NCBI RefSeq assembly: GCF_055900595.2
Contig: NZ_JBVWEU010000005.1
Direction: 5' to 3' (one strand)
Length of the DNA stretch: 40,586 bases
Origin: a plasmid
In this document: piece by piece, positions 1 through 39,844 of the stretch
How positions within the stretch are numbered: the stretch's first letter is position 1
Layout: every line of letters starts with the position of its first letter
The notes under the pieces: generated by a model
Told to the model about the DNA's origin: nothing
The model's input: the letters and a program-made list of their open reading frames with translations, nothing else
Databases searched by the model: none
Made by a program: the position numbers and the translations under genes

Positions 1-3000
1 ATTAGTAGCCTCTGTGATGCTCCCTGCCGTTGCGTAACCTTCGGCCACAATCAACACCGGGGATTCTTTAAGCGCATCCAGCCCGCCAATGACATGGAAA
101 CATCCCTCTTTGCGAGCGTTTTTGGCAAAACGTTTTGTGCCATCCTCGTTGATGTACTGCATAGTCCATTGCTTACCATGGACATCATAAGCAGGAATAA
201 AGGTTTTCTGTCCGTCCTTATCAGTGAACACACCTTTATGTACCTGCAGCCCTTTCTTCTTCAGGTAAGCAGTTTGCTGCTGAGGTTCATTGAGTTTAGC
301 GAGCTGCTTTTGAACACGCTTTGCAGAGGACTCATGGTCTTTTTGCTGCTGTGCCGCTTTTTCGGCCTGTTTCTGAGCAGCCTGCGCCCGCAGGAGCGCT
401 TTTTCTTCGTCGGACATCACATTTCCTTTGGAAGACCAGCGTAACTCTTCTTTGGTGCGGTTGTTCTGCATGAAGCCTGCAGGATGGCCGTCAGTATAGA
501 TGATATAAAAACCTGACTTTTCCCCTTTCTTGTCTCCCTCTACCGTGATCCGATGCTTCTTACCATCCATAATTGGATGTTTCTGTCCTTTGTCAGTATC
601 GGCATCAAGGATGCACCCAATATCTTTCAGCGCGGTTTCTACTTCCTCCTTTAGCGTCATGGCCGGTGACTGTTCGATCACCACATTTTCCGGTTTCCAC
701 TTCGCCAGTTTTTGCATATCTGCCCCAGCTTCGGCATACCAAGTTTTTTTCTCTTTGTCCCATTTAGCACCAGCTGCTTTAGCTTCTGCGCGGTCTTTAT
801 AAGGGACAGCCAGATTCTGACGCTCACCCACTTTTGGCGTTACTTCTTTCACAGATACGACAGATGAATTTTTTTCTGCAGTTGGCCCACCAACCCATTT
901 TGCAAATTTATCCAGAGATACACCTTTTGGTACAAACCAGGTCTGTTCGGTTCGATCCCATTTTGCCCCAAGCGTTTTAGCTTCATTGCGTTCTTTGTAG
1001 GGGACATTGATTGGAGTATTTTCCTGCGCAACGTTCAGACTGAATGCCGGAAGAATTCGCCCTCCATCTTCACCAAGGAAAACCGCCTCATTATCTCCCG
1101 GTTCTGGGCCAAGCGCATCCAGAGCGCTTTTCAGTTCATCCGGGCTGTCAGCGCCCTCCATCAGGCCTTCAACACGGTCTTGATACCATTCCTGTGCTTC
1201 TCCTGGTGGGAGCACGCTAATCTCATCATCAGGCTTGATAATACCTTGCTTTAAGGCTGCTTTTTCTGCTTCAAGTGTTTGATAAAAATTGTTCTGCAGG
1301 TCATTCAGATCAACCTTACCGTTATTGATGAGACGTGAGTCATAAATTGAACGGTTATCCCCTTCGTTAACAGCGGCCAGCGCCTTAACTGCACTGTTGG
1401 TCTGCATGATTATATTCACATGCTCATTCTGACCAGGATTTTCCACAATGTTATATTTCGGCTCAGGTAGAAGTGATAATGCAAAATCAATCTCACGGTA
1501 TGCGCTCTTGATCTTGTCCTGAGCCTCATTCCAGTTTTGACTGAACGAAGAATGAAATTCCTTGTTACGCTGCCAAAAATCACTATCCTGATTGCTATTT
1601 TGAGCATCATAGAGAACGTTTCGTGACAACGTAAGCTGGCGACGGTTCATATTCTGAACGTGCTTAGAAAGACCACTATCGAGATTCGAAAGAATAAATT
1701 TCTCTGCACGATACTGGCGCTGCTGCGCTGATGTAATAGACGTTTCAATTTTAGTGGTCATATCAGCCTCTGCAGCTGCTTTTGAGTTCTCCACATTTGG
1801 GGTCGACGCCAGAAAACTGGAATTAGGCCACCAGTTTTTAGGAAACTTAACATCCTGCGGTAATTCTCGCGGGTCTCCACTGATATTTTCAATCTGACTA
1901 TGAACTTTTTTAGCGACTAAAGTTAGGTTGTTATCTATGCTGGCGAAAGCGGTTTTAAGAGCATTGCTTTGCCATTCATTATCGGATGAAAATCCCGTTC
2001 CGGGGACACGCTCATCACCGATATATGTCAATGCTTTTCCACGCCCAACCACATCAGTATGAACAGGAATAGTATTTCCATTACTGTCTTCGTAATTAAC
2101 CCGAATAGTTTCTTCGCCCAGCTCACCAGTGCCACGGCTGTAATAGGTAACGTAACCAGCTTCCTCAGCTGTCTGCTCCAGTGTCATGAATGTGAAATGA
2201 TAGAGTTGAGCTGTTTCCGCATCGAAAATCTGCGGGTTAGTCAGCCGCTGTACCTCAGCCATTACCTCATTATGCTCTTTTTCGCGCTGCTCTCTTTCCA
2301 GAGTTACCGGTTGTTCCTGTATTCTCTGTTGTTCAAGGCCCAACACAAACCCCTGGATTTTTTCAGCATCAGCTGCTGCACGGAAAATTTCCAGCGGATC
2401 ATCCTGTAAGGCTTTAATCCAGGATTTTACATAGGCAACATGCTGGGAAGGGTCATGACCTATCCCCAGTTCATCGCCAATGATCATACTGGCAATCTCT
2501 GCGCGTAGTTCTTCTCTGGCGTAACCTTCACTTCCAAAAGGATGGGACAGGTCACGATCAAGACGCGATGCGTGACCTGTCCAGTGGCTCAATTCATGAA
2601 GTGCAGTGGCATAGTAACGATCAGCACTTGGAAAGGAAGCCTGCTGCGGCAAATGAATGCTGTCTGTAGACATACGGTAAAAAGCCCGGTCTACCTGGTC
2701 ATGAGAGATTTTCGCGCCAGAGGCTTCGAGAATAGATTCAGCACGTTCAATACTGTTCCAGCTCTTATCTTGGCGAACGGCCATCGGCGGTAGACCGTCA
2801 ATCTGCTCCGCATTAAACACAACTGCGTTAAATACCTTCGGTCGCTCCAGTTGGACAGTTTCTTTTACCGGTTTATCGTCTTTATCGAGCACAACGCTAC
2901 CATCATCGTTGCGTTTGATGCGTTCCTCAGTAAATTTCCAGTATTGGATCGGCGTGCCTTTTTCGCCTCTCCTTACCTGCGCATTTGCAGCCGTCGCCTG

Positions 3001-3222
3001 CTTATAGGTCATCCAACGTTGATCGCTATACCCCTGCGCCATAAGGTGAATAGCGTTAATGCCTTTATAACGTTTACCCGTCGTAGGGTTCATAGGCAAT
3101 GCGACACCAGGAGCGCCGGGGTTCCATGGTTTCTGCCATGGAGCTGTCCCCTCTTTAAGCTGGGCTATCAGGTTTTCAGCCACAATCTCATAAAATGGTT
3201 TTTTCGCTTTAGCTTCTGCCAT
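1..3222 (-). CDS. traC: TraC-like DNA primase, N-terminal ~1074 codons (ArdC-like domain, tandem ~40-aa repeats, Toprim EGYATA motif); ORF runs off the left window edge
   Basis: Hand translation of the minus strand from ATG at 3220-3222 (SD GGAG upstream) stays open to position 1: MAEAKAKKPFYEIV..., with HELSH (HEXXH) motif and ending ...LIVAEGYATAGSITEATN. Not in the ORF track because it has no stop inside the window. Confidence 0.8.
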   Translation of the reverse strand, partial: MAEAKAKKPFYEIVAENLIAQLKEGTAPWQKPWNPGAPGVALPMNPTTGKRYKGINAIHLMAQGYSDQRWMTYKQATAANAQVRRGEKGTPIQYWKFTEERIKRNDDGSVVLDKDDKPVKETVQLERPKVFNAVVFNAEQIDGLPPMAVRQDKSWNSIERAESILEASGAKISHDQVDRAFYRMSTDSIHLPQQASFPSADRYYATALHELSHWTGHASRLDRDLSHPFGSEGYAREELRAEIASMIIGDELGIGHDPSQHVAYVKSWIKALQDDPLEIFRAAADAEKIQGFVLGLEQQRIQEQPVTLEREQREKEHNEVMAEVQRLTNPQIFDAETAQLYHFTFMTLEQTAEEAGYVTYYSRGTGELGEETIRVNYEDSNGNTIPVHTDVVGRGKALTYIGDERVPGTGFSSDNEWQSNALKTAFASIDNNLTLVAKKVHSQIENISGDPRELPQDVKFPKNWWPNSSFLASTPNVENSKAAAEADMTTKIETSITSAQQRQYRAEKFILSNLDSGLSKHVQNMNRRQLTLSRNVLYDAQNSNQDSDFWQRNKEFHSSFSQNWNEAQDKIKSAYREIDFALSLLPEPKYNIVENPGQNEHVNIIMQTNSAVKALAAVNEGDNRSIYDSRLINNGKVDLNDLQNNFYQTLEAEKAALKQGIIKPDDEISVLPPGEAQEWYQDRVEGLMEGADSPDELKSALDALGPEPGDNEAVFLGEDGGRILPAFSLNVAQENTPINVPYKERNEAKTLGAKWDRTEQTWFVPKGVSLDKFAKWVGGPTAEKNSSVVSVKEVTPKVGERQNLAVPYKDRAEAKAAGAKWDKEKKTWYAEAGADMQKLAKWKPENVVIEQSPAMTLKEEVETALKDIGCILDADTDKGQKHPIMDGKKHRITVEGDKKGEKSGFYIIYTDGHPAGFMQNNRTKEELRWSSKGNVMSDEEKALLRAQAAQKQAEKAAQQQKDHESSAKRVQKQLAKLNEPQQQTAYLKKKGLQVHKGVFTDKDGQKTFIPAYDVHGKQWTMQYINEDGTKRFAKNARKEGCFHVIGGLDALKESPVLIVAEGYATAGSITEATN

Positions 3223-3227
3223 GGCCC

Positions 3228-3413
3228 TTACTCCGCATCAAAAGCGCTTTCGTATGCGTCACGTACATTCAGCGCATCATCTTCGAATGCCCCCACAAGA
3301 TCAGCCTCATCGGGAGAAAATTCGACTACATATCCCGGTGTCATCAGATCGCGATATTTTTCCTGTATTGCGTCGTTAACATCAGGGCGAATTACTGCAT
3401 TAGTATCAGTCAT
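3228..3413 (-). CDS. small acidic protein (TraD-like position between topoisomerase and primase)
   Basis: 61-aa acidic ORF tightly packed between the two genes; position matches traD in RP4 Tra1. Weak sequence-level support. Confidence 0.4.
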   Translation of the reverse strand: MTDTNAVIRPDVNDAIQEKYRDLMTPGYVVEFSPDEADLVGAFEDDALNVRDAYESAFDAE

Positions 3414-3428
3414 ATAGTGCCTCTACAA

Positions 3429-5459
3429 TTAAGCGCGTTTTATGGGGTTATAGTTTGGACTACCTTTAATATCTGGGTACGACTCCTTACAATTGGGATA
3501 ACCACTGCAAGACCAGAAGTGACCGGATTTTTTGGACGGACGACGAATAAGTCCTTTACCACATACCTTGCATTTGTACTTGTCAGAAATTTGCACACCA
3601 CCGGCAACTTTGATAGCTCCGGCATTAATAACCTTAATCTGCTCTCGTACAAATTTTTCCTGAATCTTCACAAAAGAATCAACGTCACGTTTCCCCTGCT
3701 CTATTTCCAGTAACATACGTTCGTTGATGGCTGTCATTACCGGGCTTTTAACAAGTTCTGGCAGAATGGCTATCAGCCCCCTTCCCAGCTTGGTACTGAT
3801 AATGTCTTTGCCTTTGTTTTCAATAAAACCACGTTTCTTTAAATCAGCAACAATTGTGGCGCGGGTAGCTGATGTGCCAATACCATCACCTTCCCGCAGT
3901 AATTTTTTCTGAGCCGGGTCTTCAACATACTTATGAATATTTTCCATTGCAGTGTTGAGTGTACCGTCATTAAAACGACGCGGAGCTTTAGTTTTAGCAT
4001 CCTGCCGCTGTGCCTGAGCACAAATAATTTCGTCACCATTTCTCATTGATGGAAGAGTCTGTTCAGACTCATTTTCTTTTTCTTCTTCATCCTCTCCATC
4101 TGAATAAACATCCTTCCATCCATTTTTAGTCGTTACGCGACCACCGGCCCCAAATGTTTCACCATTAACATCAATAATAATTGATGTCGCTTTATATTCA
4201 TGTACTGGATAAAATTGAGCCAAGTATGTTCTTACGATAAGGTCGTAAATATTACGCTCTTCTGGCGTAAGCCTTTCAACGTTACCTTTGTGCATCGTTG
4301 GGATAATGCCGTGATGCGCTGTAACCTTAGAGTCATCAAAAGTTTTTGATTTTACTTTTGGATCAGCCTTATCGATTAGAGCAGCTATTCCCGGATAAGT
4401 AACCCGAAGAGAATCCAGAATTTGAGGTGCATCTGCGTGTTGAGATTCAGGCAAATAAGAACTATCAGAACGTGGATAACTGGTAAGTTTATGCGTTTCA
4501 TAAAGAGACTGGCATATAGCCAGCACTTGCTCACCAGAATAACCAAACTTACTTGAAGCAACAGCGGTGATACTGCCAAGAGAATAGGCTTTTGGATGAT
4601 ATTTTTTCTTTGGCTCTTGCTTATATTCAACAACCTTACCGGATTTTCCGGTTAAAGCCGCTACTAGCTTATCAGCTTCTTTAGTGTCAATAAGCCTTCC
4701 CTCTGAATCAAGCCCTGGCTGATCTTCTCTGGCCTGCCATGCCGCAACAAACGCTCCTTTGTCATGTTTAAAGACAGCTTTAATATTGTGATAAGGAATT
4801 GGTTTGAAGTTTTCAATTTCGAGATCGCGGGCAACAACAAGTGCCAGCGTTGGTGTCTGAACTCGCCCGACCGTCAACAGAACACGCGAGCCACCACGCG
4901 CTGCCGACAACGTGAATCCTCTTGAAAGGTTCATTCCAACCAACCAGTCAGCCCGACCACGCGCAAGAGCTGCACGTCCAAAATTTACATATTTATCGTT
5001 GTTCTCAAGTCCTTTCAACGCCCTTGTGACACTTACCGTATCATTCGCATTACACCAGTAACGCAGAACCGGTTTAGTACATCCCATGTCATCAAGGATT
5101 TCATCAACCAGTAACTGCCCCTCGCGATCTGGATCGCCAGCATTTACAATCGTGTCAGCTCGCTCAACCAAATGCTGGATGGTTTTCAGCTGTTTCTCAG
5201 CATCTTCACGAGGATTAATAATCCATTTTTCGGGGATAATTGGCAGTTCATCTTCTCGCCAGATTTTTTTACCGCTTTCATTACGAGGCACATTGTCTGG
5301 TGTATATTCATCAGGTTCAGCCTGCTCAAACATATGACCAAAACACCAAGTCACATAGTCACTGCCGCACTCAATGTAACCGTCTTTTTTATTGGTTGCG
5401 CCTAATACCTCAGCGATAGCCCTTGCAACCGTCGGTTTTTCTGCAATAAATACTCTCAT
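3429..5459 (-). CDS. traE: DNA topoisomerase III (TraE-like), with C-terminal zinc ribbon
   Basis: 676 aa; N-terminal Toprim (MRVFIAEKPTVARAIAEVLG), C-terminal CxxC...C..C; strong SD (GGGAG); position as in RP4 Tra1. Confidence 0.85.
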   Translation of the reverse strand: MRVFIAEKPTVARAIAEVLGATNKKDGYIECGSDYVTWCFGHMFEQAEPDEYTPDNVPRNESGKKIWREDELPIIPEKWIINPREDAEKQLKTIQHLVERADTIVNAGDPDREGQLLVDEILDDMGCTKPVLRYWCNANDTVSVTRALKGLENNDKYVNFGRAALARGRADWLVGMNLSRGFTLSAARGGSRVLLTVGRVQTPTLALVVARDLEIENFKPIPYHNIKAVFKHDKGAFVAAWQAREDQPGLDSEGRLIDTKEADKLVAALTGKSGKVVEYKQEPKKKYHPKAYSLGSITAVASSKFGYSGEQVLAICQSLYETHKLTSYPRSDSSYLPESQHADAPQILDSLRVTYPGIAALIDKADPKVKSKTFDDSKVTAHHGIIPTMHKGNVERLTPEERNIYDLIVRTYLAQFYPVHEYKATSIIIDVNGETFGAGGRVTTKNGWKDVYSDGEDEEEKENESEQTLPSMRNGDEIICAQAQRQDAKTKAPRRFNDGTLNTAMENIHKYVEDPAQKKLLREGDGIGTSATRATIVADLKKRGFIENKGKDIISTKLGRGLIAILPELVKSPVMTAINERMLLEIEQGKRDVDSFVKIQEKFVREQIKVINAGAIKVAGGVQISDKYKCKVCGKGLIRRPSKKSGHFWSCSGYPNCKESYPDIKGSPNYNPIKRA

Positions 5460-17357: not shown

Positions 17358-17948
17358 CTAACGACTTAATTTCTTCTTTTTCATTCTGGCCTGCTCAATC
17401 TCTGTCCCAGCGACTTTTTTAAACCAATCAGGCAAATCATTAGAAATGAACTTTGTTTTATCTTGTTCTGTGCGGAAAAGTAATCGCCGTCTGTTATAAC
17501 TGTTATCAAATACCCATACCCGGTCAGCCACGGCCATAGCTTTAGGTAGGTTGGTTACAGAACGCTCGTATCGTCTGAAAATATCATCAACAGGCACATT
17601 ATGACCACCAAGGCTTACACGCTGGTTAACGCGAGCTACTGACATTCCTACATCTTTCACCCCCACATAGATTAAATTAATTTTGTAACCTGCAGTTGCA
17701 GCAAGCTGCATTAACTTAATCTCCCCCATTCCTGTGAGTGTCGTTTCTACAGCGAAAGTACATCTATTTTTGATATTTTCCGTGCGCAGAAAAAGTGCCT
17801 GCTCTCCTGCCTTTCGATTGCTTATACCTTGTTCCCGCGCAATATCATCAGGGTTAACAACCTCTATTTTCCCAAGGATATGTCGCTTAACTAGGGTAGA
17901 TTTTCCTGCACCATTAGGCCCAGCAATAACCCAGAGTTGAGGACGCAT
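17358..17948 (-). CDS. zeta-toxin-like P-loop kinase
   Basis: 196 aa; Walker A AGPNGAGKST at residues 9-18, then IEVVNPDDIA resembling the zeta-toxin hhhDNDxF segment; ATGA start/stop overlap with the upstream ORF. Confidence 0.55.
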   Translation of the reverse strand: MRPQLWVIAGPNGAGKSTLVKRHILGKIEVVNPDDIAREQGISNRKAGEQALFLRTENIKNRCTFAVETTLTGMGEIKLMQLAATAGYKINLIYVGVKDVGMSVARVNQRVSLGGHNVPVDDIFRRYERSVTNLPKAMAVADRVWVFDNSYNRRRLLFRTEQDKTKFISNDLPDWFKKVAGTEIEQARMKKKKLSR

Positions 17949-18199
17949 CAGAGCTTAACCTCAACTACTTTTTCTGTACCAGTCATGAAACTCACCAGTT
18001 CCTTACGGCCATCTGGATATTCTTTTATAACACACCCTTCTGGTGTATTTCGTTCAGCGTAATAAATAGGTACGCCACTAAGAAGATTGGCACGGGCTTC
18101 TTCACCTGCATCATATCCAAGTTGTCTATCAAAAACGGTAAAAAATCGTGCTTCATCAGAAGGTGTCATTTCGGCCAGATGAGATAGATCCATACTCAT
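17948..18199 (-). CDS. small protein translationally coupled to the kinase (candidate antitoxin/partner)
   Basis: 83 aa, acidic; its stop overlaps the kinase start. Confidence 0.45.
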   Translation of the reverse strand: MSMDLSHLAEMTPSDEARFFTVFDRQLGYDAGEEARANLLSGVPIYYAERNTPEGCVIKEYPDGRKELVSFMTGTEKVVEVKL

Positions 18200-18695: not shown

Positions 18696-18956
18696 TCACA
18701 CCTTCCAGATTTTACCCAATCCTGCATATTCAACCAGAATAGCCCAGGCCGAAAAAGGAATGGGTGTATCCCCCCCAACCCAGCGCCTGACGGTTCGGCT
18801 GTCTTTCAGACCGGTCAGTGTGGCTGCTTTGCTTCCTGTTAGCTCTGCTATCTGCATCAAAGTACGAATTTCTTCTGGCGTAGGACAATCCCATCCCGCA
18901 CCAAAGGGTAAAAAACATTCTGACCTGATTAAGACAGGGTAGGGTTTAGTTTGCAT
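18696..18956 (-). CDS. korC: KorC-like small HTH repressor
   Basis: 86 aa, starts immediately after the klcB stop (klcA-klcB-korC order as in RK2 kilC); HTH-like segment LTGSKAATLTGLKDSRTVRRW. Confidence 0.5.
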   Translation of the reverse strand: MQTKPYPVLIRSECFLPFGAGWDCPTPEEIRTLMQIAELTGSKAATLTGLKDSRTVRRWVGGDTPIPFSAWAILVEYAGLGKIWKV

Positions 18957-36803: not shown

Positions 36804-37012
36804 TACTGCACTCACAGTGTAAACTGGCCAGGACAATCAAGGCAACCTTAAAAAGCCATCAATGTGATAAAAATGACATGACATCACTTTTATCACTTTT
36901 TAATGTGGTAGCATCATCTAATGTTGAATCATTAATTACTGTCATTTACTACAAGATTTACGCCATAAGAAAAAAAGCAAAACTCGTAATATTAGCTATC
37001 AGCAGCTACGAT

Positions 37013-37025
37013 TTTAGCCGCTAAA
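37013..37025. promoter_or_regulatory. KorB operator (OB) TTTAGCCGCTAAA
   Basis: Perfect 13-bp palindrome. Confidence 0.8.
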
Positions 37026-37039
37026 AGATTCTCTTACTT

Positions 37040-37663
37040 CTATTTATCTTTAAATTCATCCTGCAGCTTATCAATGCCTTTAGTTAAATCTTGACTTTTA
37101 CCATCTTTATAATCAGGCCATGGAATAAACATCTTTCCTGATTCCTGCATCATTGCAATTGATGTAGGACAGCGCCATTCAGATTCATCACCTTTTTTGT
37201 ATTTAAAAACAACCATTCCACGTTCACACTTAACATCGGGGGAAATGGACTGAATAAACATCGAATTAGCGGAACCATTCTCACCGGCATTGAACATTGC
37301 GCTGTCAAAAAATATAAATGCGAGAATTAATGAGAGAACGGCACAACCAGTATTCCAGAATTTCTTTCCACGTTCGGAATAAAATGAAAACATCATCACC
37401 ATTGCTAGAGATGAAATAAAACCTAACCATTGTGACGCAACTGAAAGTTGTGAAAGCGTTTTAACTGTATAACCACCTTCACCAGAAAGGAAAGACAAAA
37501 TAAACGGTGAAACAATAAAGCAAATTGCTGGAAAACAGGTAAATATCAGTTTGGCATTATTCTTGATTAACTGGCGCTCTCCAGAAGCCGCCGCGATCAT
37601 CGACTGCCACATGATTTTTACCAGCGTCAGCATCAGAACACTGCAGATCAACATATAAAGCAC
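37040..37663 (-). CDS. membrane protein with C-terminal soluble domain, under two putative OC operators
   Basis: 207 aa, about 4 TM helices then a charged C-terminal region; function unknown. Confidence 0.55.
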   Translation of the reverse strand: MLYMLICSVLMLTLVKIMWQSMIAAASGERQLIKNNAKLIFTCFPAICFIVSPFILSFLSGEGGYTVKTLSQLSVASQWLGFISSLAMVMMFSFYSERGKKFWNTGCAVLSLILAFIFFDSAMFNAGENGSANSMFIQSISPDVKCERGMVVFKYKKGDESEWRCPTSIAMMQESGKMFIPWPDYKDGKSQDLTKGIDKLQDEFKDK

Positions 37664-37706
37664 GGCTTACTCCCAATCCTTAGACGCTTTGAAAACCACT
37701 TGCAAA

Positions 37707-37723
37707 TAGGACAAAATGTCCTA
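37707..37723. promoter_or_regulatory. putative KorC-type operator TAGGACA-AAA-TGTCCTA
   Basis: Perfect 17-bp palindrome 44 bp upstream of the 207-aa gene. Confidence 0.55.
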
Positions 37724-37732
37724 TCATAGATG

Positions 37733-37749
37733 CAGGACATAATGTCCTA
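37733..37749. promoter_or_regulatory. putative KorC-type operator CAGGACA-TAA-TGTCCTA
   Basis: Second copy 10 bp from the first; tandem arrangement. Confidence 0.5.
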
Positions 37750-37816
37750 TATGAAGGATGATAGGGAGGCAGCAACCTCCCTATCCGACACCTAAAATCC
37801 GTGCAAGGAATTTGAA

Positions 37817-38023
37817 ATGTCCCATATATCCTATAGCAAAACAGCATCATATGACAGACGGCCACTGGAGTATCTTTCCCTGTCAGATTTCATCCATGCT
37901 CTTCCAACCGTTACCATTGATGAGATTGAAAAACTCGCTGAGACAAACATCCACTTGGTCGAGCAGATACCACGTTACCTGAGCCAAATGGTCAGCCATG
38001 AATGCAGACTTATTGGTTTTTAA
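37817..38023 (+). CDS. small ORF in the divergent intergenic region
   Basis: 68 aa with AAGGA-like SD; may be a leader or regulatory peptide, or spurious. Confidence 0.25.
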   Translation: MSHISYSKTASYDRRPLEYLSLSDFIHALPTVTIDEIEKLAETNIHLVEQIPRYLSQMVSHECRLIGF

Positions 38024-38097
38024 TAGATCTTATTAAAAATAAATAGATACATATAGAATCAATTTGAAACTTTTAATGAAGACAAACCGCCCTCATT

Positions 38098-39084
38098 ATG
38101 AAGCCACACACTCTCCCAAAATGGTGCGTTATGAAAAAATTTCAGGTCAGAAATTTCCCGGACGATGCATATTTCGCCTTGGAACAGTTAGCAAACGAAA
38201 ATCAACGTTCGGTCGAAGGTGAGGCCCGCTATGCTCTGTTGAAATGGATAGCACCTCCTGAGCAGGTTTATTCTGGAGAAGAACTATACCGGCAGGAAGT
38301 GTCTGGCCGCCTCAATACAGTTCTGCGGAAAACCAACCAATTCCGTAACTACAAACCTCTTGTGCCGTCCAATGTGGCCGTAGAGCTGAGGATTGAAGAT
38401 CTTGGCCTTGTCGCCAACTGGTTCAGTGGTGACGTACTCCCTTCCTTCACTGAGCTGCAGCGGTTAAGCAAGTTATTTGGTTGTCGCGCCGACTGGTTAA
38501 TTCACGGTGAGGGGGATGTGTATGAATGGAACTCAGGCGTCAGAATGCACGGCGCAGGCCGGGCTGCTGTTAAGCACCTTCTCAGACCTGATAGTGATGG
38601 TAATAAAGTCACAGACATCAGGCTGCTAAGAGAAGATAGTGATATAGGAGCACTTCTGATACTCCGTGAGTTTGAAAATACACGGTATGTTGATGCGTTC
38701 TGGACAAACCTACACGTAAGTGAAGCCATTGGAGCCGGTGGCGAGTCTGATTTGGCTGATTTTTTTGTCACTCTTCGGGCGCTGTACAAGAGTTTTGTCA
38801 AACTTGATGTAAACGTCAAAGGCTACCTTATGCCGCGATCTGCCTATAAGCAAATCAGAGAAGAGGAACAAGCCTATCCACTGATGCTTCTCAAGGATTA
38901 TCGTGTAAATGAAAGCATGTGGTGGGAGGATATTTGGGATAAAAGTCAAAGAGGTAAATTTAATTACTGGAAAGGTGATGAGGCGCTGATTCGTCGCATT
39001 GAAGATGCAATAAAGCGTAATAAAAGATTGCTTGATGAAATTGAAGCTATTAAAAACTCAGATCCTTTGGACCATGATGATTAA
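38098..39084 (+). CDS. multidomain protein: Arc/MetJ-type ribbon-helix-helix, XRE-like HTH and a ~180-aa C-terminal domain of unknown function
   Basis: Segment MKKFQVRNFPDDAYFALEQLANENQRSVEGEARYALLKW resembles RHH proteins; ...LSKLFGCRADWLIHGEG resembles the end of an XRE HTH. True start may be the ATG at 38131. Confidence 0.55.
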   Translation: MKPHTLPKWCVMKKFQVRNFPDDAYFALEQLANENQRSVEGEARYALLKWIAPPEQVYSGEELYRQEVSGRLNTVLRKTNQFRNYKPLVPSNVAVELRIEDLGLVANWFSGDVLPSFTELQRLSKLFGCRADWLIHGEGDVYEWNSGVRMHGAGRAAVKHLLRPDSDGNKVTDIRLLREDSDIGALLILREFENTRYVDAFWTNLHVSEAIGAGGESDLADFFVTLRALYKSFVKLDVNVKGYLMPRSAYKQIREEEQAYPLMLLKDYRVNESMWWEDIWDKSQRGKFNYWKGDEALIRRIEDAIKRNKRLLDEIEAIKNSDPLDHDD

Positions 39085-39095
39085 CGTTCATTTAT

Positions 39096-39108
39096 TTTAG
39101 CCGCTAAA
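39096..39108. promoter_or_regulatory. KorB operator (OB) TTTAGCCGCTAAA
   Basis: Perfect 13-bp palindrome 12 bp after the stop of the RHH-HTH gene. Confidence 0.8.
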
Positions 39109-39118
39109 AATTAACAAT

Positions 39119-39146
39119 AGCCGGGGTTTACCCGGCTGTTTTATTT
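39119..39146 (+). terminator. rho-independent terminator
   Basis: Hairpin AGCCGGG-GTTTA-CCCGGCT followed by GTTTTATTT. Confidence 0.55.
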
Positions 39147-39356
39147 CACATTCCGCCAGGCAGACGCAGGAACCTTATCCCAGATTTTTCCATGATAAAT
39201 TTCTGCCTTGCGATGATCATAAGCACTCAGAAAATCGCTAAGATGTTCAGAAGAAACAATGTCCCGCTTATGTTCATAAAGGCGTTCAACTGTATCTATC
39301 GTTCTGCAACGCCGGAACATATACAAAAACTCGGACCTTTTATCTGAATGACTCAC
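39141..39356 (-). CDS. small hypothetical protein downstream of the lipoprotein gene
   Basis: 71-aa ORF whose first codon is GTG; overlaps the lipoprotein stop. Confidence 0.3.
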   Translation of the reverse strand: MSHSDKRSEFLYMFRRCRTIDTVERLYEHKRDIVSSEHLSDFLSAYDHRKAEIYHGKIWDKVPASAWRNVK

Positions 39357-39844
39357 TTAGTTAGTCCTTTTGCCTTAGCCTGTTCTACTGCATCTGCAAT
39401 ATCTTTAATCATTTCGCTCATTACATCAGCGCTGAACAACGGGCCTGCCGAAGTCATTACGGCGACATGATACAGCTTTAGCGGTGTGCCTTTGCTGTAT
39501 TGCTCGCTGGAACTAATGCTCAAAACGGAGTAAGACACCTTTTCAGTATTCGAGCCGCAAACCTTTTTATTGACATCAATAATACGGCTGTCTTTATTTT
39601 TCGAAAGAGTCTGTGTAAGTACACCAGAGTAAATACATTTATCGTCGTGTGATATTAAGTTTATTTCCTTCGGCGTAATGTCATTTTTTTCAATCGGAGT
39701 ATCTAGCATCACCATTATTGGTGTTTCATCAGCGTTTCCTTTTATCATATTATCAACAATTCCACAGCCAGCACATGGAAATCCGGTGGCATAAGTTAAA
39801 GGGGTAAAAATTAATAAAAACGCTGCGATATATATCTTTTTCAT
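39353..39844 (-). CDS. secreted protein or lipoprotein of unknown function
   Basis: 163 aa with N-terminal signal peptide MKKIYIAAFLLIFTPLTYA; low GC; downstream of the primase gene. Confidence 0.5.
   Translation of the reverse strand: MKKIYIAAFLLIFTPLTYATGFPCAGCGIVDNMIKGNADETPIMVMLDTPIEKNDITPKEINLISHDDKCIYSGVLTQTLSKNKDSRIIDVNKKVCGSNTEKVSYSVLSISSSEQYSKGTPLKLYHVAVMTSAGPLFSADVMSEMIKDIADAVEQAKAKGLTK

Follow-up and report, generated by a model that had tools for sequence, protein, structure and literature searches.

A putative accessory operon with KorC- and KorB-type operators, encoding a predicted three-domain DNA-binding protein, on an IncP-1-like plasmid

The DNA considered here, hereafter the window, is a stretch of 40,586 nucleotides (contig NZ_JBVWEU010000005.1 of the NCBI RefSeq assembly GCF_055900595.2), which represents nearly the entire 40.6-kb plasmid and is 99.8% identical to the E. 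coli plasmid pSTEC2018_607-e. Towards its right end, a membrane-protein gene stands divergently to two genes, orf68 and orf317, and the original prediction regarded the locus as a possible abortive-infection or exclusion module, made of an operator-guarded membrane protein and of a multidomain protein with two DNA-binding folds. We rather read it, with a probability of roughly 0.5, as an accessory operon, orf68-orf317, encoding a DNA-binding regulator and set in a control circuit of the kil-kor type. The regulatory wiring is the ordinary part, namely the textbook kil-kor pattern of IncP plasmids, applied here to a new accessory operon, while the product is unusual, that is a three-domain DNA-binding protein with a conserved and so far unplaced C-terminal domain, encoded on more than 1,100 sequenced plasmids. 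The carriers include many clinical resistance plasmids of Klebsiella, E. coli and Salmonella, where the copies are annotated as "hypothetical".

The plasmid and the position of the locus

Plasmids of about 41 kb with a guanine plus cytosine (G+C) content of 45%, e.g. pYDC107_41, form a new IncP-1-like clade, usually devoid of resistance genes (PMC9780603, PMC6035167). The G+C content of the present plasmid is likewise 45% and the gene order of its backbone is that of IncP-1, namely trfA-ssb, trbA and trbB-N, klcA-klcB-korC, kleE, korA-incC-korB, kfr and traM-traC, in addition to tra and trb genes. Both repressors that matter here have a gene on the replicon. The KorC homologue is encoded by an open reading frame (ORF) of 86 aa (18696..18956, -), found after klcA-klcB at the expected position, and its product shares 96.5% identity with a protein annotated as KorC and 51-54% with the products of IncP-1 korC; korB is present as a ParB-family gene located 3' of korA and incC. 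The locus itself occupies an accessory slot between the trb end, the resolvase module and traC.

Promoter and operators

A consensus scan identified a sigma-70-like promoter, TTGCAA-16-TATCAT (37700..37727, +), overlapped by two tandem KorC-type operators: operator 1, TAGGACAAAATGTCCTA (37707..37723), lies between the -35 and -10 hexamers and operator 2, CAGGACATAATGTCCTA (37733..37749), covers the predicted transcription start. The 17-bp palindrome TAGGACAnnnTGTCCTA occurs at four sites in the window against 0 expected, two of them here, one in the klcA promoter and one in the kleE promoter, which bears out the two tandem palindromes of the original prediction. In the klcA and kleE promoters, the operator is likewise placed between the -35 (TTCACA or TTGCAA) and a TATAAT -10 and the promoter reads toward the gene; the layout in front of orf68 is the same. 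With korC on the replicon and an operator overlapping the promoter, common to those of klcA and kleE, the locus has the features of a member of the KorC regulon. Regarding the operator itself, we take TAGGACAnnnTGTCCTA to resemble the RK2 KorC operator, the half-site being AGGACA here and presumably AGGGCA in RK2; in a Halomonas plasmid with a member of the orf317 family (L020, 6224-6238), the sequence AGGGCATAATGCCCT is assumed to be the exact core of the RK2 operator.

The direction of this promoter is where the original prediction failed, as it had placed the palindromes in the promoter of the membrane gene. As drawn from the hexamers, the palindrome-bearing promoter points away from the membrane gene, toward orf68 (68 aa; 37817..38023, +) and then orf317 (317 aa; 38131..39084, +). 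The former gene, preceded by an AAGGAA ribosome-binding site, annotated in relatives and placed between the palindromes and orf317, had been overlooked. The promoter hexamers are kept in every related lineage, with TATTAT as the -10 there, and this includes the more distant lineage L023, where operator 2 is absent and the upstream gene runs in the same direction, without any divergent membrane gene. Since the rightward promoter is conserved even where the membrane gene is missing, the guarded transcription unit would be orf68 and what follows it. Lineage L023 also has a perfect inverted repeat, AATGCTAATGTA-tgcg-TACATTAGCATT (3000-3027), immediately before the orf68 promoter; this repeat has no counterpart in the window and may represent another operator.

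Sites for the second repressor flank the locus. The 13-bp KorB operator (OB) TTTAGCSGCTAAA occurs 12 times in the window against 0.04 expected by chance. One exact match, TTTAGCCGCTAAA (37013..37025), lies 15 nt past the stop of the membrane gene and another copy of TTTAGCCGCTAAA (39096..39108) lies 12 nt past the stop of orf317, so that the KorB operator reported after a stop in the original prediction turned out to have a counterpart at the other end of the locus. With operators at 37013 and 39096 and korB on the same plasmid, the features expected of the KorB regulon are found as well. Beyond the second operator, a G+C-rich hairpin with T-runs on both strands (39116..39140), located between the convergent genes orf317 and hha, looks like a bidirectional terminator.

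From this layout, we infer that the promoter would be repressed by KorC, and that KorC at its two operators together with KorB at the flanking ones would keep the putative orf68-orf317 operon almost silent. With the promoter covered by KorC operators and KorB operators on either side, the unit would therefore be shut off in an established plasmid and expressed mainly as a burst before the repressors accumulate, e.g. just after conjugative entry, in parallel to the klc and kle "kil" operons. In RK2, the KorC/KorB-regulated kil promoters klcAp, kleAp and kleCp likewise have a 17-bp palindrome between the -35 and -10 of a strong promoter, and the presence of a korC homologue and of nearby KorB operators adds to the likeness. 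Here, however, there are two tandem operators instead of one, the locus stands in the accessory slot between trb and tra, some 17 kb away from the central control region, and neither orf68 nor orf317 has a counterpart in RK2.

Besides the KorC-type promoter, orf317 probably has a weak promoter of its own. The block CATATAGAAT (38050..38059, +), with a -10-like TAGAAT at 38054-38059, is found about 72 nt upstream of the orf317 ATG, and the pattern ACAT(A/T)TAGAAT is invariant in the window and in lineages L002, L004, L023 (~3921-3930) and L026 (~3920-3929), the flanks being otherwise divergent. Such conservation suggests that the block is probably a -10 element or an operator.

The orf317 protein

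The 328-aa protein of the original prediction corresponds to an existing ORF (38098..39084, +) but its start probably does not hold. The real start is most likely the ATG at 38131, giving 317 aa, because it is the one annotated in RefSeq, the homologues all begin with M-K/R-K and a GGTG upstream is conserved, standing 5 nt before the ATG in four of five lineages. The gene is under purifying selection, as reflected by a ratio of non-synonymous to synonymous substitution rates (dN/dS) of 0.16, and its G+C content of 45% equals that of the plasmid.

The reading of the protein as a ribbon-helix-helix (RHH) domain, an XRE-like helix-turn-helix (HTH) and a C-terminus that could not be placed was correct. 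The RHH domain (residues ~1-45; 38131-38265, +) matches the Pfam family FitA-like_RHH (PF22513) with an E-value of 1.9e-5 and the family profile matches the FitA structures 2h1o and 2bsq; in the model, an extended N-terminus is followed by helices 11-23 and 28-40, and the sequence shows the typical pattern 'IRNxP...RSxEAExR'. The HTH (residues ~49-127; 38275-38511, +) has the five-helix cI/Cro fold and is a lambda/P22-type XRE domain. While XRE/Cro-cI repressors, such as lambda cI, P22 C2, the 434 repressor and C.AhdI, usually have a C-terminal S24 peptidase or simple dimerisation helices, neither is present in orf317, where the HTH is inserted instead between the RHH and an alpha/beta domain of a new kind.

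This uncharacterised C-terminal domain of about 190 aa (residues ~128-317; 38512-39081, +), with the motifs HVSExIGAGG and WWEDIWD, is without a Pfam family or a solved relative. Its model is confident, with a predicted local distance difference test (pLDDT) of 92 and a predicted template modelling score (pTM) of 0.88, and the domain is predicted to run from a beta-meander through a long helix and a fourth strand to a helical tail. Conservation is complete or nearly so at R167, G173, T192, S197, G201/G203/G204 (where the long helix begins), P250, W264-W265-E266-D267-x-W269, W280 and G282, a set that would fit a loop binding phosphate or a ligand, along with a protein interface. The profile and structure searches proposed with the original prediction left the domain where it stood: a fold search with the full-length model returned matches to the HTH only, and the best structural match to the C-terminal domain itself, TT1805 from Thermus thermophilus (PDB 1wn9), has 7% identity and a marginal score and provides no functional lead.

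An RHH of the FitA/Arc type needs dimerisation. The 317-aa protein would bind DNA as a dimer or a higher oligomer via both the RHH and the HTH, and the C-terminal domain would most likely contribute either the dimer interface or a site for sensing a ligand or partner, if not both; the Gly-rich loop that opens the long helix would form this site with the invariant Arg, Ser/Thr, Glu-Asp and Trp residues. The output would be transcriptional control of plasmid or host genes.

Mosaic inheritance and the membrane gene

The region of the locus is a mosaic in which the two large genes are not inherited together. Both of them occur in only two of 109 related records. In about 28 related plasmids, orf68 and orf317 are kept and most of the membrane gene is lost, with a breakpoint inside the 5' end of that gene; in about 80 others, the membrane gene, the promoter and orf68 are kept and a 152-aa ORF, unrelated to orf317, takes its place. 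This last arrangement is that of the most abundant lineage, where the membrane protein is found on 877 contigs. In one further lineage, an additional ORF of 147 aa separates orf68 from the orf317 homologue, and lineage L026 lacks orf68 and bears on the divergent side a defence-like cluster with E1-E2/JAB and patatin genes; as this cluster sits in the same slot, the slot appears to be a hotspot for cargo and defence genes. The membrane gene of the window is about 93% identical to the copy of the abundant lineage (L006) and the adjacent orf68 only 68%, which points to a recent exchange.

In L026, the cluster (1-3586) is composed of a patatin gene, an E1-E2/JAB fusion gene and a 367-aa gene and is of a CBASS-like or ubiquitin-like kind. 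In the same variable region, some relatives carry an unrelated 295-aa protein with an RHH-like N-terminus (MMELTQISLRTSRDQVERIK...; L004 2794-3681, L002 2077-2964, L005 2743-3630), the C-terminal part of which shows by hhalign no similarity to the C-terminal domain of orf317.

The membrane gene (37040..37663, -) was correctly called as a 207-aa ORF divergent from orf317; it has a GTG start preceded by GGGAG, and RefSeq places the start at the ATG 37633, giving 197 aa. That it encodes a membrane protein was also right, as hydropathy reveals four hydrophobic segments, with a predicted N-out/C-out topology (loops 1 and 3 are positively charged, following the positive-inside rule) and an 83-aa C-terminal tail with two Cys, predicted to be periplasmic. 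The gene is under purifying selection (dN/dS 0.15-0.17) and its product has no family in Pfam, NCBIfam, PADLOC or PHROG, so that on this side too the proposed profile searches left the protein unplaced. Homologues are present on 1,572 plasmids and, outside the clade, full-length ones with about 33% identity were found on some 1,480 IncHI2, IncL/M and other plasmids, with no orf317 relative near them.

The distribution of the two genes bears directly on the two-gene module, in which the membrane protein would be the effector and the RHH-HTH-sensor protein the regulator or sensor of an abortive-infection or exclusion system. This appears very unlikely. A divergent pair sharing a 153-bp control region, a predicted periplasmic domain comparable to that of some exclusion proteins and the E1-E2/JAB and patatin cluster found in the same slot of a related plasmid would all suit it. 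However, a pair that works together is hardly expected to co-occur in only two records out of 109. In the most abundant lineage orf317 is swapped for an unrelated ORF, another lineage has the membrane gene deleted, and each family occurs alone on more than 1,000 plasmids, among them IncHI2 and IncL/M plasmids in the case of the membrane protein and IncF, IncR and IncI plasmids in that of orf317. The G+C contents of the two genes differ (38% for the membrane gene vs. 45% for orf317 and the plasmid), as do the divergence histories on the two sides of the promoter. Besides, the pair has no match in PADLOC and the IncP entry-exclusion protein, TrbK, is already encoded on the plasmid. On the other hand, the original prediction was right that no characterised IncP backbone protein is homologous to either product. 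In our reading, the membrane gene is separately acquired cargo, a chance neighbour on the other side of the promoter and not the partner of orf317, and a false lead, that of a defence pair, is removed.

The orf317 family and its variant architectures

An exhaustive profile search retrieved 125 clusters at 50% identity with E-values below 1e-30, most of them of about 300-340 aa and aligning from end to end. Homologues are encoded on 1,156 plasmids of PLSDB, 900 of which are from Klebsiella, with IncFII, IncR and IncI types, and no membrane gene of the kind described above lies near these copies. Among 177 representatives, 105 have the three domains, 13 the HTH and C-terminal domains, 14 the C-terminal domain alone and 11 the RHH and HTH, some of the short ones being possibly fragments. 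In ten contexts that were compared, the gene is always on conjugative plasmids or integrative elements and has no conserved neighbour; the genes found around it encode relaxase, VirB10/11, topoisomerase III, or partition or toxin-antitoxin functions. In one Klebsiella IncFIA/IncR plasmid (L031, 2136-5422), a Gabija system (GajA, E 1e-102; GajB, E 1e-46) and vapBC are located just upstream of a homologue with 25% identity. In the pnd-trbA slot of IncI1-type plasmids, the coordinates of interest are 6001-6954 in L029 and 2419-3504 in L032.

Several results weigh against a plain regulatory operon guarded by KorC. At the promoter, a leftward one for the membrane gene can be drawn, although the consensus scan gives only a weak candidate, CGGATA-18-TATCAT; if used, it would put both KorC sites downstream of the start of the membrane gene, and since KorC bound at both could still block leftward transcription, some control of this gene could remain. 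Regarding the protein, neither a DNA target of orf317 nor a conserved autoregulation operator was found, and the conserved polar and acidic residues of the C-terminal domain would also suit an enzymatic role. In 22 of the 177 representatives, moreover, the HTH and the C-terminal domain are kept behind a different N-terminus. In P0160 and P0165, it is of the Mrr restriction-endonuclease type (Pfam Mrr_cat_2, E 0.01, motif GGIDI...VQCK), and homologues of these two carry PF04471 or bear the name restriction endonuclease; in P0056, it is a TIR-like domain of the CAP12/Pycsar type (E 0.006; PADLOC TIR, E 0.05); in P0110, P0118 and P0174, transmembrane N-termini stand in place of the RHH. Such a pattern of Mrr-like, TIR-like and transmembrane heads is commoner among conflict or defence proteins than among plain regulators.

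These variants raise the question of whether orf317 works on its own as a conflict protein, be it in competition between plasmids, in fertility inhibition or against phages, and we hold this to be unlikely. The HTH and C-terminal domain would then form a constant sensing core, and, with the same low likelihood, the RHH would be an output imposing a transcriptional block on a competitor or invader. In addition to the swapped N-termini, a family member of IncI1/B/O plasmids occupies the pnd-trbA slot that holds the fertility inhibitor gene finQ in pESBL, defence systems lie near two family contexts (Gabija and the E1-E2/JAB and patatin cluster), and costly or toxic products are typically kept under very tight repression. 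However, the effector-domain calls are weak and the variant fusions are a few metagenomic singletons on short contigs, which makes the evidence for swappable heads thin, and sequence searches of the PDB with the N-termini of the nuclease and TIR variants gave no matches. FinQ from IncI1 is a positional analogue only, finQ being found on pESBL-EA11 where pWP9-S17-ESBL-11_2 has an orf317-family gene, and it was rejected as a homologue with an hhalign probability of 0.2. Variable plasmid regions often hold defence genes by chance, and an RHH would be an unusual output domain for an immune protein.

The searches for defence families point in the same direction. In PADLOC, the sole match of orf317 was its HTH region against RmrA (E 0.008), no defence family being significant, and among the models of known anti-phage systems neither orf317 nor the membrane protein had a significant match. 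More broadly, scans of orf317, the membrane protein, orf68 and their neighbours with PADLOC, PHROGs and NCBIfam returned generic HTH matches only, and a literature search by protein accession retrieved no paper on the orf317 or membrane-protein families.

In a wider version of the same idea, which we consider likewise unlikely, the HTH and C-terminal domain of the family together would be a sensing core, so far unrecognised, of conflict proteins from mobile elements, to which different N-terminal outputs can be attached, an RHH in most members and a Mrr-like nuclease, a TIR-like domain or membrane helices in a few. The protein of the window would then be a single-protein device that conjugative plasmids turn on competing plasmids or on phages, whether through fertility inhibition, exclusion or a transcriptional block, and it would be silenced by KorC and KorB because it is costly.

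Comparison with accessory regulators and antitoxins

For the regulator encoded by the putative orf68-orf317 operon, the nearest functional analogues would be accessory plasmid DNA-binding proteins tuning plasmid-host transcription, namely Upf31 and HerB. Regulators of host or plasmid transcription encoded by plasmids are increasingly seen to determine how costly a plasmid is and how it spreads (PMC11997246, PMC13370423), and the orf317 family is a cheap and well-defined candidate for studies of the kind dedicated to these two proteins. HerB of F is ParB-like (PMC13370423) and is an analogue by function only, orf317 not being homologous. Upf31, from the IncP-1beta plasmids pBP136 and R751, perturbs plasmid and host transcription and affects plasmid cost (PMC11997246); like orf317, it is an accessory DNA-binding protein encoded in an equivalent backbone slot, and it is autoregulated.

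One may wonder whether orf317 likewise tunes the Kor circuit of the plasmid, by binding plasmid DNA, KorB or both, thereby acting on backbone regulons and fitness cost. The common slot, between the trb end and the resolvase/traC region, would be consistent with it, as would the predicted contact of the autoregulated Upf31 with KorB (PMC11997246) and the KorB operators flanking the locus, one of which in lineage L023 lies about 100 bp upstream of the putative orf317 promoter. We nonetheless consider such a role distinctly unlikely. Upf31 has a Dam-methylase-like fold with a KorA-like C-terminal tail, whereas orf317 combines an RHH, an XRE HTH and a new domain, with no relation in sequence or fold; neither a methylase match nor a KorA/TrbA-type tail nor any shared domain was detected. 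The TrbA model, which finds the KorA/TrbA/KlcB-type C-terminal motif in the KorA and KlcB of this very plasmid, does not find it in orf317, and most members of the family are on non-IncP plasmids without KorB.

The RHH also brings to mind toxin-antitoxin systems, as the ~45 N-terminal residues of orf317 match the family of FitA/VapB antitoxins (PF22513). The protein could accordingly be viewed as an unusual antitoxin-like or fused toxin-antitoxin stability protein, with the toxin in the C-terminal domain or in a partner, e.g. orf68; just as improbable is the attendant role of the FitA/VapB-type RHH, which would repress and neutralise the toxic activity. Its best match in the antitoxin class, database entries naming some homologues 'plasmid stability protein' or 'antitoxin FitA' and the tight repression predicted for the operon agree with such a view. 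Yet those names derive from the Pfam match of the RHH itself, and FitA is a protein of about 70-80 aa paired with a PIN toxin, whereas in orf317 an HTH and a 190-aa domain come after the RHH. Neither a PIN nor any other toxin gene is adjacent to orf317 here or in the ten other contexts, for which reason membership in the type II systems of the FitAB/VapBC type was rejected. A partnership with orf68 is further at odds with its occurrence on 135 IncP-like plasmids, the orf317 family being far wider, and a toxin-antitoxin function appears most improbable.

orf68 and neighbouring features

The small protein encoded by orf68 is under purifying selection (dN/dS 0.08-0.14) and was found on 135 plasmids only, all of this IncP-like clade, where its gene is the sole coding part of the mosaic region present in every variant except L026. 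It has no significant match in Pfam or NCBIfam and, as no Kle model of these databases matches it, a protein of the KleA/KleC type was discarded. Its leader holds a 10-bp stem-loop, GATAGGGAGG-cagcaa-CCTCCCTATC (37760..37785, +), with a perfect stem, a folding energy of -19 kcal/mol and a z-score of -4.3. Lineage L023 keeps a stem with a different outer stem sequence, save one unpaired C on the 5' side. This structure may stabilise the mRNA or have a regulatory role.

Besides the locus, some neighbouring features of the plasmid can be mentioned. An inverted repeat of 16 nt, AATGTGATAAAAATGA / TCACTTTTATCACTTT, is found at 36861-36899, within the 330 bp that separate the 207-aa membrane gene from a membrane ORF of 121 aa. 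The central control region has an insertion between kleE and korA (17358-18199), made of a zeta-toxin-family gene and an 83-aa ORF upstream of it. On the other side of orf317 (39141-39844), a gene of the Hha/YmoA family (E 4e-18) shares 4 nt with the start of an ORF of 163 aa, the product of which has a signal-peptide-like N-terminus and a Cys-rich start; both genes are convergent with orf317 and the pair is present or absent independently among relatives.

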